Assembly (NCBI GenBank): GCA_963712665.1
Contig: CAVQIV010000005.1
Location: forward strand, 142,356 to 206,355
Direction: 5' to 3'
Length of the DNA: 64,000 nt
Source: Thermoanaerobaculaceae bacterium
Lineage (GTDB): Bacteria > Acidobacteriota > Thermoanaerobaculia > Multivoradales > UBA5704
Under the pieces are notes generated by a model, which saw nothing but the letters and a program-made list of their open reading frames with translations, had not been told where the DNA came from and did no database searches. Positions 32,415-40,266 of the stretch are shown in pieces. Each line of letters opens with the position of its first letter. The first letter of the stretch is position 1. The position numbers and the translations under genes are program-made.

Positions 32415-32729
32415 ATGGTCAGTACCAAGCAGTTCACGATTTTCTTCCTGCTGGTCGTCGTGTTTCTCGTCGCCATCATGATCGTGACGTCGTTGGCCTG
32501 GCGCGAGTCGAGTAAAGAGTACGACACCACCAGCATCCGGACGAGCCTGATCAGCATCGTCGATTTCTCCGCGTCCAAGATCTCCGAGCAGGAATCCGCC
32601 ATGCAGTCCTGGGTCGACAAGGTGGACCTCGAGCTCCATCAGACCCAGGGTCAGATCAGTTCCCTCCAGGATCACGTCGACACGGAGATTCAGGGCCTGC
32701 CTCCTGTCTCCCGTCCCGAATTCTGGTAA
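32415..32729 (+). CDS. small N-terminally membrane-anchored coiled-coil protein (104 aa)
   Basis: Start chosen at the ATG preceded by aaagggaggcgtctct. The N-terminus MVSTKQFTIFFLLVVVFLVAIMIVTSLAW is loosely pilin-like but lacks G(-1) and E(+5). GC is lower than its neighbours. Confidence 0.5.
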   Translation: MVSTKQFTIFFLLVVVFLVAIMIVTSLAWRESSKEYDTTSIRTSLISIVDFSASKISEQESAMQSWVDKVDLELHQTQGQISSLQDHVDTEIQGLPPVSRPEFW

Positions 32730-32795
32730 GCAGGAGGCGGAGCCTGGAGGCTCGAAGCCTCCAGGCTCCACCGTCGATACGATCAGCCAAACATT

Positions 32796-38147: not shown

Positions 38148-39169
38148 GCACCGCCTGGCGCTACACCGCGATGCTGCTGGCGGGAGCCGTCCTGCTGCTG
38201 GGGACCGGCCTCTACACCATGCACAAGGCCCTTTCGGGACGCCGCGACCCGCGCGAGCTGCTGGAAACCCGGAGGATCCTCGAGCAGATGGGAGGCGAGG
38301 CCGGGCTCGCCGCGCGCAAGGCGCGGCTTGCGGAGATCGTCGCGCGGCTCCGCCAGGAGCAGGTGGCCCACGTCGCCGATGCCGACGCCTTCAGCCGGCG
38401 CATCGAGGAGACCTTCGCCGAGCTCGGCCTGCAACTGACCGCGTCGAGCGATTGGAAGCCCGTGCCCAAATTCAAGCTCCCTGGGGCCGCGGCCTTCGAG
38501 CGGACCTTCGCGGGCATCGGACCTTTCGACCGGCTGCTCGACGCCCTGGCGACCCTCGAGAGCTGGCCGGATGCGGCCCGGGTACGGTCGTTGTCCGTCT
38601 CCCGGCAGGGGCCGGGAAAGATCGCCTTCACCCTGGAGGTCACCGTCATCCGGTCCATGGGAACAAGGAGGGCCGCTGACATGTCCGCCGGAAGAATCGC
38701 GCTCATCGCCGCCGGCCTCCTGATCGCCGTCTGCGGGCTCGTCCTGATCGTGCGGGCCTTCCATGTCGCGGATGCCGCTGCGGCAGACTCCGCTCCGGCC
38801 CCGGCGTCCAACGACGCCATGAGAGGACGGGGCCAGGAGCCGCCGCCTCCCAGGTGGCAGAGCTTCCTGCGGCCGGACGAGCAGGCAAGACCGCCGCGCC
38901 CGGTCGTCCATCTCGCCCGGACAGCCCCCAACCCCTTCGATCGCCTCGCCACGGTCGGCGGGGCCAGGGCTGCGAAGCCGGAGAATCCGGGCTTGAGGCT
39001 CGAAGGAATCTCCGCTGGCGCAGAGGCCGTGGCGCTGATCTCGGGGCACGCGGTGCGCGAGGGAGGCACAATCTCGGGCTTCCGGGTCTTGCGCATCGGC
39101 CGCTCGGCGGTGACGCTCGCCGGCCCGCGGGGAAACCATCTCGATCTCGCCCTGGGAGCCGGCCGGTGA
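38144..39169 (+). CDS. GspM/PilO-like plus GspC/PilP-like protein (apparently fused, two TM segments)
   Basis: The first half has a TM (YTAMLLAGAVLLLGTGLY), a coiled coil and a ferredoxin-like end (KIAFTLEVTVI). The second half has a TM (IALIAAGLLIAVCGLVLIV), a Pro-rich linker and LRLEGISAGAEAVALISGHAVREGGTISGFRVLRIGRSAVTLAG (GspC-HR/PilP-like). No stop separates the halves. The GTG start overlaps the previous stop. Confidence 0.5.
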   Translation: MSTAWRYTAMLLAGAVLLLGTGLYTMHKALSGRRDPRELLETRRILEQMGGEAGLAARKARLAEIVARLRQEQVAHVADADAFSRRIEETFAELGLQLTASSDWKPVPKFKLPGAAAFERTFAGIGPFDRLLDALATLESWPDAARVRSLSVSRQGPGKIAFTLEVTVIRSMGTRRAADMSAGRIALIAAGLLIAVCGLVLIVRAFHVADAAAADSAPAPASNDAMRGRGQEPPPPRWQSFLRPDEQARPPRPVVHLARTAPNPFDRLATVGGARAAKPENPGLRLEGISAGAEAVALISGHAVREGGTISGFRVLRIGRSAVTLAGPRGNHLDLALGAGR

Positions 39170-40266
39170 GCCGCTCCCTGCCAGCGCGGCTTCCCGCGAC
39201 GGCGGTCAACGCCCTGGCGGACCTCGTGGCGGTGGGCTTCGGGGTGGCCGAGGCACTCGCGGCGCTGCCCCGCCAGTCGTTGCCGAAGAGGACGGCGCGG
39301 CAGCTAGACGCCGAGCTTTCTCTCCTCGCCGAGGGGGCTCCGCTCGACGCCGCCCTCGACCGGCTCGGGCTCGAGATCACCGCCGCTTCCATCCGCGGCT
39401 CCCAGGCGCGGGCCGCGGACATCGAGGCAGCCCTCCGTGCCGACGCCGAGGCGCAGGAGGCGACGGACGGTGCGCTGAAAAAGACGCGGCGCCGGATCGA
39501 GGCCCTGGCCCTCGTCCTCGCCGGCCTCTGTGTGTCGACCTTCTACCTGTCCTTCATCCTGGTGCCGGGCCTGATCCGCAAGAGTACGGAGAACCTGCCG
39601 CCGGGCTGGCAGGTACCGCCCGCCCTGCGCCAGTTCGAGAGCTTCCGCAACCTGTGGCTGGCGCTGGGTGGGTCGTTCCTGCTCCTGGGGGTGGCGCTGG
39701 TGGCCGCCGTCGCCGGGTTCCTCGGCCGGGAGCGCTGGTTGGCGTTCCTTCAGGACCTTCGGCTGTATCTGCCGTTCCTGCGCGCCCATGCCATTCACGC
39801 GAGCCGGGCGCGGCTCCTCGACGCGCTGGCCTTCGAGGCTGCGGCGGGCCTGCCGGCGAACGAAACCCTGCGCCGCGTCGGCCGGCGGGAGCCGGTACCC
39901 CGGCTGGCGGCGGCGCTGGCGCTGGGCGCCTCCCGCCTGGACGCCGGCGAGCCCTGGGCGAGCTGCCTCTGCGGCACCCTCCTCGACTCGCCGCTCTTAG
40001 CCGACCTGACCGCGCTCGCGGGCCACGGGGCGCGCCCCACGAAAGGCCTGCGGTGGGCCGCCGCCCAGAGCCGCGAGCAAGCGGTCAAGGGACTGCGCTG
40101 GGCGGTCACCGGCGTCGCATCGCTCCTGCTCATCCCCTCCTTCGCCTATCTCCTGGTCCTCATGCACGTGGCCTCCGTGACGGCGGCCATCGCCCAGGTG
40201 GAGTCGGTCCGGCTGGAGATGGAGACGTTGACGAACGAGGTGGACCAGATTCTTCAAAAGCCTTAG
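39166..40266 (+). CDS. divergent GspF/PilC-like inner-membrane platform protein
   Basis: 366 aa with two cytoplasmic helical repeats (LSLLAEGAPLDAALDRLG... and LAFEAAAGLPANETLRRVG...), each followed by TM helices, as in T2SSF proteins. The GTG start overlaps the previous stop (GTGA). Confidence 0.6.
   Translation: MSRSLPARLPATAVNALADLVAVGFGVAEALAALPRQSLPKRTARQLDAELSLLAEGAPLDAALDRLGLEITAASIRGSQARAADIEAALRADAEAQEATDGALKKTRRRIEALALVLAGLCVSTFYLSFILVPGLIRKSTENLPPGWQVPPALRQFESFRNLWLALGGSFLLLGVALVAAVAGFLGRERWLAFLQDLRLYLPFLRAHAIHASRARLLDALAFEAAAGLPANETLRRVGRREPVPRLAAALALGASRLDAGEPWASCLCGTLLDSPLLADLTALAGHGARPTKGLRWAAAQSREQAVKGLRWAVTGVASLLLIPSFAYLLVLMHVASVTAAIAQVESVRLEMETLTNEVDQILQKP

Follow-up and report, generated by a model that had tools for sequence, protein, structure and literature searches.

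Here, I describe an operon of seven genes located at positions 32415-40266 of a 64,000-nucleotide stretch of DNA from a Thermoanaerobaculaceae bacterium of the Acidobacteriota (GenBank assembly GCA_963712665.1, contig CAVQIV010000005.1, positions 142,356 to 206,355 of the forward strand), hereafter called the window. The operon lies on the plus strand directly downstream of the gene for a giant SpvB/RHS toxin, and is a real, conserved and lineage-specific variant of T2SS (type II secretion system) / type IV filament machinery, endowed with new components. A previous, sequence-only reading of the same DNA had regarded it as a pilin-less secretion operon and as a candidate export machine dedicated to the toxin. 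The anatomy given there is borne out by the letters, in that seven co-directional open reading frames (ORFs) are present and are chained by 4-nt ATGA/GTGA start/stop overlaps at 35234, 35554, 37020, 38144 and 39166; the two small anchored proteins that it recognised, g1 and g3, are both bitopic. The order in the window is g1, secretin, g3, ATPase, g5, g6 (in which two parts, a and b, are fused) and g7. A simple scan detected no intrinsic terminators beyond chance in the operon, an Rfam scan of the whole window returned no family at the gathering threshold, and no published description of this operon type was found in literature searches.

The assembly ATPase (35554..37023, plus strand) is of the GspE/PilB type, as had been claimed: it matches PF00437 (T2SSE) with an E value of 1.2e-93 in Pfam, possesses an N-terminal MshEN/T2SSE_N domain, and carries a CxxC-x4-CxxC cluster, the tetra-cysteine element CPYCGGDGCFAC, which can be read directly from the sequence. 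The GspE-type hexameric assembly ATPase of a T2SS is thus present, and it is the only ATPase gene of the operon. Against the NCBIfam models it scores 344.8 bits for GspE (TIGR02533, cut-off 630) and 330 bits for PilB, both below the cut-off; likewise, the secretin and the platform remain under the equivalog cut-offs, so that the three proteins fall short of the GspD, GspE, GspF and PilB models. The platform, g7 (39166..40266, plus strand), is a divergent GspF/PilC-type inner-membrane protein (PF00482, T2SSF, E 2e-08; TIGR02120, GspF, E 1.6e-4 over residues 11-344), in agreement with its former description as GspF-like, and represents the polytopic GspF platform of a T2SS in divergent form. It is the most conserved protein of the operon, with 82% mean column identity; a profile search with g7 against PDB sequences found nothing.

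For g5 (37020..38147, plus strand) no family could be recognised at the sequence level in Pfam, and a profile search against PDB sequences gave nothing either, while some orthologs show weak Pfam matches to PilN/T2SSM. The AlphaFold2 model, built on 39 homologs (predicted local distance difference test score, pLDDT, 84.7), has an actin-like cytoplasmic domain, a transmembrane (TM) helix, a coiled coil and a ferredoxin-like periplasmic domain, namely the layout of GspL. Since its top Foldseek matches in PDB are cytoplasmic domains of GspL (cyto-GspL, 4pht_X, E 1e-4; EpsL, 1yf5, E 8.8e-4; also 5hl8), g5 is called GspL-like, and the model, a confident one, bears out the earlier designation as GspL/PilMN-like; in Foldseek, its periplasmic part is similar to PulL/PulM, PilO and PilN. 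The following gene, g6 (38144-39169), had been taken for a GspM/PilO plus GspC/PilP-like protein. It is indeed one fused ORF in the window, but most relatives have two genes in its place (~177 and ~164 aa), and the GspM/GspC identity is putative. The fusion is probably real, because the same in-frame junction of g6a and g6b is seen in L020, a JGI metagenome contig. The g6a part (38144..38680, plus strand) consists of a TM helix and a periplasmic domain and is GspM/PilO-like by position and architecture only, whereas the g6b part (38681..39169, plus strand), with a TM helix, a Pro-rich linker and a C-terminal beta-rich domain, is GspC-HR/PilP-like on the same grounds. In size, topology and position the two would suit GspM and GspC, g6a filling a GspM-like and g6b a GspC/PilP-like position.

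The secretin gene (32796..35237, plus strand) encodes a weak STN-like N-terminus, in which no Secretin_N domains were detected, followed by the secretin domain and by a C-terminal extension of ~300 aa (34300-35237 and orthologs); the latter has no Pfam match and looks helical-repeat-like by eye. The secretin domain that had been announced is there (PF00263, E 5.5e-40), and with it the outer-membrane secretin of a T2SS, although the score against TIGR02517 (GspD) is 150.7 bits, under the cut-off of 351. The single intact gene, on the other hand, does not stand. Ortholog secretins are intact (769-879 aa), that of the close relative L020 included, and match the window sequence in four pieces whose frames run 3>1>2>3, the window gene having to shift by +1 three times, near 33385, 34735 and 34898; the 813-aa ORF 32796-35237 stays open through its middle because the off-frame part has no stops. 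DNA alignments reveal a single inserted base at two of the three breaks, and both of these resolvable insertions lie outside homopolymer runs. A homopolymer-type sequencing error was therefore rejected for the secretin. The toxin gene has three breaks of its own, near 26477, 26580 and 27150 (region 26477-27168). A case in point is also sucD, a core gene of the tricarboxylic acid cycle, in which the frame has to be shifted by +1 six times in succession over 880 nt; sucC is split as well (sucC/sucD, 47747-49729), and a RecQ-like gene (40263-42448, minus strand) is cut once. Every secretin and sucD break runs in the same +1 direction, as is expected from a systematic insertion error, and the shifted segments of secretin and toxin keep 66-85% identity to their orthologs with no in-frame stops. 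The breaks in secretin and toxin are thus probably assembly or sequencing insertions rather than decay, a reading for which sucD and the other broken genes form the basis, given that the resolvable secretin insertions lie outside homopolymers. Single-base breaks across conserved genes point to a low-accuracy assembly, and ORF-based readings of the window therefore need care.

No pilin genes lie near the operon. A six-frame scan of the 64 kb confirmed that no class-III prepilin motif of the G|FTLIE type is present in the window, and the same scan was negative within 10 kb of 35 related loci; the pseudopilins GspG-K of a T2SS, with their class-III signal, are accordingly absent from the window and from the flanks of the related loci. 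The further claim that the window holds no prepilin peptidase (GspO/PilD), whose gene is often located away from its system, proved equally sound, as the A24 motif of the GxGD[VI]K type occurs in no credible frame of the window or of the loci searched. Pfam searches of the larger remaining ORFs of the window returned unrelated families only, with no match to N_methyl or Peptidase_A24, and in the orthologous loci the genes' precomputed Pfam tables list no N_methyl proteins. Since motif scans and Pfam tables are both negative, the absence of pilin and peptidase genes in cis is real and conserved. Along the same line, neither PilA nor the retraction ATPase PilT, the marks of a type IVa pilus (T4aP), was found in or near the operon.

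About 70 relatives of the ATPase at the cluster level share 56-100% identity with it, and beyond them there is a sharp fall to ~40%. The named members within the family come from Thermoanaerobaculia or from metagenome-assembled genomes (MAGs) of Acidobacteriota, and the operon family is confined to Thermoanaerobaculia. As for g1 and g5, each has some 60-120 relatives, none of them with a Pfam domain and the named ones nearly all entered as "hypothetical protein". Gene order (g1, secretin, g3, ATPase, g5, g6a, g6b, g7) is the same in all of the ~20 loci recovered. Two types can be told apart by g1, which in type A has 104-106 aa and is at least 77% identical to that of the window, and in type B has ~93-103 aa with 53-70% identity. 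The complete chromosome OY970330.1 (MFD05537, 8.78 Mb) harbours two copies of the operon ~190 kb apart (L001/L016 and L007/L011).

Outside the family, the four nearest ATPases that could be placed (L036-L039, including MAGs of Gemmatimonadota) all belong to T2SS operons of the G/H/I/J/K-L-M-C-D-E-F type, complete with N_methyl pseudopilins and GspK. In these outgroup operons the GspL position is occupied by a protein of ~405-470 aa with weak PilN matches, and the GspM position by one of ~165-205 aa (with a weak T2SSM_b match in L038), followed by a protein of ~165 aa, the secretin, GspE and GspF; the proteins at the L, M and C positions of L036 are co-linear with g5, g6a and g6b, although the hhalign comparisons are non-significant. 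On the simplest history, the pseudopilin block of a T2SS disappeared, its genes were reordered, and g1 and g3 were acquired. Several operons, both copies of one genome among them, are followed by a noncoding element of ~500 nt which is 89-94% identical between loci (L007, 19561-20160; L001, 15645-16023; L020, 11998-12400; L033, 18411-18907) and absent from the window; it gives a sub-threshold Rfam match to the Acido-Lenti-1 small RNA (26.7 bits, E 8e-4).

The most distinctive part of the operon is g1 (32415..32729, plus strand), a bitopic protein of 104 aa with a TM helix at residues 4-32 and a long, variable periplasmic helix at 38-92. In the family alignment residues 1-31 (MVSTKQFTIFFLLVVVFLVAIMIVTSLAWRE) are nearly invariant. 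Over the 24 codons of the TM region, first, second and third positions vary in 5, 2 and 16 codons, respectively; as third positions vary and first and second ones hardly do, the constraint on this region acts at the protein level. Over the 51 codons of the C-terminal part the corresponding figures are 39, 32 and 38, and this part appears, from the alignment, to evolve fast. The AlphaFold2 model (pLDDT 84) shows two helices (4-32 and 38-92) broken at 33-37 and no beta domain. Neither Pfam nor NCBIfam contains a family for g1, and Foldseek gave no match; a profile search of 1.84e9 representatives returned 23 matches, none of which is a canonical pilin. When compared with GspG by hhalign, KQFTIFF of g1 is aligned with KGFTLIE (P 0.27), which is non-significant. 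g1 thus shows the evolutionary signature of a pilin, yet fails the pilin definition, which comprises a class-III signal, Gly(-1), Glu5, and an alpha-1 helix with a beta-sheet head. That it is a substrate of Sec signal peptidase I was considered and rejected, its hydrophobic stretch being 22 residues long and invariant, and position -1 being Val in many members. It is either a new abundant accessory protein or, a possibility on the doubtful side, a non-canonical filament or piston subunit. Tandem copies of g1 occur in L014, L027 and L028. The other small protein, g3 (35234..35557, plus strand; 107 aa), which is likewise bitopic, has a conserved helix (RASAVSTQxSIELLRMHLRV) and a C-terminal PWPE motif in the alignment; Pfam and NCBIfam searches gave no family for it.

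About 95 nt 5' of g1 lies a sigma-54-type promoter, TGGCACGCATCTAGCT (32304..32319, plus strand), which is an exact pattern match and whose TGGCAC and GC elements are invariant or nearly so in 12/12 aligned loci; upstream of it are repeated CCGACA-type motifs. The 5' leader of g1, although conserved, folds no better than shuffled sequences (z -0.57). Directly 3' of the g1 stop codon there is a perfect 14-bp GC-rich hairpin without a U-tract (32739..32769, plus strand), the 101-nt stretch around it folding at -42.6 kcal/mol (z -4.4), and a strong hairpin stands at the same place in all of the 18 loci that were folded. It is likely to be an attenuator or an mRNA-stabilising element, and suggests a higher output of g1 than of the genes downstream. 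Type-B loci have, between this hairpin and the secretin, a conserved TM-less ORF of 39-49 codons resembling the C-terminal helix of g1 (L001, 7078-7197; L002, 6221-6367; L003, ~7097-7213; L005, ~7005-7136; also L013, L019, L023, L031 and L033), which is absent from the window. Its identity reaches 95% between loci and is ~54% between distant ones; it may encode a genuine small protein or else be part of a g1 copy that has been retained.

The gene upstream of the operon (22995..32113, plus strand) encodes a giant SpvB / FG-GAP / TcdB_midN / RHS protein with a signal peptide and a ZU5 domain by Pfam, that is, the SpvB, TcdB_midN and RHS repeats and the C-terminal toxin domain of Tc and RHS polymorphic toxins. 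The sequence-only reading was right about a signal-peptide-bearing giant toxin directly upstream, as a Sec-type signal peptide was found. In L007 and L010 the ortholog is one uninterrupted ORF, of 3052 and 3009 aa respectively, and aligns to the window in frames 3>2>1>2. The C-terminal end of the window toxin (31800-32113) shows a weak match to an OTT_1508-like deaminase (19.7 bits, cut-off 27), with no ORF of immunity-gene size before g1; in L007 the ortholog differs from the window toxin over the C-terminal end, and the next gene (9176-9829), a likely immunity gene, codes for an ankyrin-repeat protein of 217 aa.

Two features speak for a link between toxin and operon, namely adjacency and regulation. 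In five of the seven type-A loci with enough upstream sequence (the window, L007/L011, L008, L009 and L010), g1 is directly preceded by the toxin. As to regulation, the toxin gene has a sigma-54-type promoter of its own, TGGCGCCGGCCTTGCT (TGGCGC-N5-TTGCT; 22937..22952, plus strand, by pattern search), and the toxin of L010 has a sigma-54-type TGGCAT-N5-TTGC at the equivalent place. An element upstream of the toxin gene (CCCTGTCTGACACCCAACGCTCTGTCTTGACAC; 22805..22838, plus strand), found as a 26-nt direct repeat, recurs upstream of the operon (TGTCCGACAC...TGTCGGCTGACAC; 32184..32220, plus strand), and the element is a probable site for an enhancer-binding protein. The common upstream element noted earlier was recovered with 24/26 identical nucleotides (92%) over 32184-32209; it lies 132 nt upstream of the toxin promoter and 120 nt upstream of the g1 promoter. 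The operon element is also found before g1 in L007, L008, L020 and L021, with 3-4 CCGACAT repeats instead in type-B loci.

A second association between a T2SS and toxins of this kind comes from the outgroup. In L037 a pseudopilin-bearing T2SS operon has a teneurin-like YD-shell/RHS toxin of ~2480 aa on either side, one of which is co-directional, placed right after gspG and provided with a signal-peptide-like N-terminus; in L039 the same toxin type (1-2176, minus strand) lies divergently upstream. The toxins beside these operons (in L037 at 1-2264, minus strand, and 12058-19503, plus strand) contain Glucodextran_B, TTR_TEN, NHL and TEN_YD-shell domains. Downstream of the operon in the window, a small gene pair (42241-42872, minus strand) has a HigB/HigA-type toxin-antitoxin look by eye and adjoins an SNF2-type helicase-like ORF of 952 aa (42859-45717, minus strand).

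The closest likeness is to the T2SS (Gsp/Eps/Pul), above all to the non-proteobacterial T2SS operons L036-L039, from Gemmatimonadota-like bacteria. The operon shares with it a secretin, a GspE-type ATPase with a zinc-type Cys cluster and an N-terminal domain, a GspF platform, a GspL-like protein and an L-M-C-like trio of the same sizes (~400, 165-205 and 165 aa), besides having no retraction ATPase and having in T2SSs the nearest relatives of its ATPase (~40% identity). It differs by having neither GspG-K pseudopilins nor GspO in cis, by its order (g1-D-g3-E-L-M-C-F), its two extra bitopic proteins, its sigma-54-dependent promoter, and a secretin with a weak STN-like N-terminus, no detectable Secretin_N and a ~300-aa C-terminal extension. 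With the T4aP (PilB, PilC, PilMNOPQ) and the mannose-sensitive haemagglutinin (MSH) pilus it has in common the architecture of ATPase, platform, alignment subcomplex and secretin, and g5 resembles the PilM-PilN fusion represented by MshI; PilA and minor pilins, PilT/PilU and PilD are nevertheless missing nearby, and the ATPase has 489 aa vs ~566 in PilB. In Shewanella vesiculosa HM13, a second, non-canonical T2SS-like cluster adjoins the gene of a single major cargo, P49, which is mislocalised when gspD2 is disrupted (PMC6971210); that cluster keeps pseudopilins (GspG2, GspK2 and prepilin-type proteins) and is without recognisable C, L and M, whereas the operon described here has the reverse pattern. 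Reduced T2SSs of Chlamydiae, which fail the standard definitions for want of components, were classed as 'generic' in a survey of type IV filament (TFF) systems (PMC6668835); they are without minor pilins and GspLM yet keep a major pilin, while the present operon has no pilin. Because the generic TFF model of that survey requires a pilin, it would not have called the present family (PMC6668835). Sec-dependent polymorphic RHS toxins, finally, have been filed under 'T2SS/Sec-dependent' export with no signature neighbour gene listed (PMC3482391). The window toxin resembles them in its signal peptide, ZU5, SpvB/TcdB, RHS and variable C-terminal domains; here, unlike in that export class, a T2SS-like operon adjoins the toxin and shares its promoter-upstream element.

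The explanation that I regard as best, tentatively and with confidence somewhat short of even, is that Thermoanaerobaculia have an envelope machine of their own, under sigma-54 control and descended from a T2SS (type IV filament superfamily), with the toxin as likely cargo in type A; that degree of confidence applies mainly to the T2SS-like secretion mechanism. Two family-specific bitopic proteins, g1 and g3, seem to stand in the operon where pseudopilin genes would be expected. The ATPase would dock on the g7 platform and the cytoplasmic domain of g5, and would drive a periplasmic piston or short filament, whose subunits would be either g1 or pilins from another locus; g1 is a candidate because it appears to be made in excess, is promoter-proximal, and stands ahead of an attenuating hairpin. 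The piston would expel periplasmic cargo, exported by Sec, through the secretin, with no retraction ATPase involved, as in the T2SS. In type A, the machine would be co-regulated with the adjacent Sec-dependent SpvB-RHS toxin, there the likeliest cargo.

Several observations weigh against this explanation. The N-terminus of g1 reads MVSTKQ-FTIFF, and Gly(-1) and Glu5 occur in no family member, distant ones included; the g1 model has two helices and no beta domain, g1 is without significant pilin similarity, no filament subunit was recognised, and for g6a and g6b the comparisons with PDB profiles, Pfam and hhalign were not significant. As regards the cargo, the toxin is missing from all ten type-B loci and, among the close type-A loci, from the neighbourhood of the operon in L020 and L021, and one complete genome has one toxin-linked and one unlinked copy. 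Moreover, a folded cocoon of the TcB/TcC type is wider than known secretin lumens. The toxin-linked loci are also close relatives (ATPase 78-87% identical), and adjacency may therefore be inherited synteny. A toxin-specific export machine, as formerly proposed, thus keeps in its favour adjacency and the shared element, while most orthologous operons are unlinked (type B, L020/L021). Of the two findings that the sequence-only reading had itself named as speaking against its proposal, orthologous operons usually unlinked to RHS/Tc genes and a normal pseudopilin set elsewhere, the first is what the orthologs present, most of them not being linked to RHS genes. The idea of a toxin exporter is plausible, with specific support from the shared enhancer element and the recurrent adjacency, yet far from shown, and that this particular operon copy exports the adjacent toxin is, in itself, rather doubtful.

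The same inherited synteny, for instance within a weapons or accessory island, would explain the adjacency if the operon were a general secretion or pilus system with no special relation to the toxin, borrowing pilins and prepilin peptidase from elsewhere, an alternative that I consider a serious one, albeit well below an even chance. It can draw on the close relatedness of the toxin-linked loci, on type-B operons, whose surroundings are unrelated (STAND NTPases, Ser/Thr kinases, an ABC transporter, a non-ribosomal peptide synthetase), and on L021, where phage-tail/VgrG-like genes take the place of the toxin; the sharing of prepilin peptidases between systems is known (PMC6668835). The genes upstream of g1 in L021 (661-5566) are VgrG-like (Phage_GPD, Phage_base_V) and Baseplate_J genes, a contractile-injection or phage-tail cluster. 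The alternative accounts less well for the 26-nt element common to the toxin and operon promoters, for the second, outgroup association of a T2SS with a YD toxin, and for the two paralogous operons of one genome, each of which keeps its own g1 and no pilin; synteny at large is also questioned by the genes flanking the window operon (RecQ-like, SNF2 helicase, hydrolase, Ada), of which the other loci showed no trace, the 2-2.5 kb that follow the operon in L007, L009, L010 and L020 being among the stretches covered. A further reading is that of a T2SS-derived machine which dispenses altogether with type IV pilins and prepilin peptidase, in which an unprocessed, all-helical g1 replaces the pseudopilus and which would be the missing route across the outer membrane for giant Sec-dependent RHS/Tc-like toxins in diderm soil bacteria; I judge this unlikely.

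Equally improbable, in my estimate, is a surface filament for adhesion or motility, with g1 as an unprocessed all-helical pilin whose invariant N-terminal helix polymerises and with the secretin as exit. The pilin-like evolutionary pattern of g1, its tandem and partial copies, and the alignment of KQFTIFF with KGFTLIE, not significant as it is, would fit such a filament, as would the sigma-54 promoter and the hairpin after the gene; pilA genes of Pseudomonas, Myxococcus and Geobacter have a sigma-54 promoter. The lack of Gly(-1) and Glu5, the break of the g1 helix at 33-37 with no beta domain, the absence of a PilT-type retraction ATPase and the nearest relatives, which are T2SS operons, argue against it. 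As to operon and toxin being decaying pseudogenes in this genome with genuine frameshifts, the three secretin and three toxin breaks, and the position of the two resolved ones outside homopolymers, are what it has to offer; the splitting of sucD, sucC and the RecQ-like gene, the absence of stops and of elevated divergence in the shifted segments, and the uniform +1 direction in secretin and sucD make decay very improbable.

To sum up, a T2SS-derived envelope machine remains the preferred interpretation, and its interest is twofold. To my knowledge, all type IV filament machines described so far are defined by pilins with a class-III signal. The operon, which is sometimes duplicated, keeps secretin, ATPase, platform and alignment proteins, with the pilin genes apparently swapped for the invariant membrane-helix protein g1, and thus offers a natural case in which to ask whether a machine of this kind can dispense with the pseudopilus or replace it. 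In addition, I know of no established way by which signal-peptide-bearing RHS toxins cross the outer membrane; the adjacency of the toxin, the shared promoter element and the second association in the outgroup make up a concrete and testable candidate for the export route of Sec-dependent RHS toxins.

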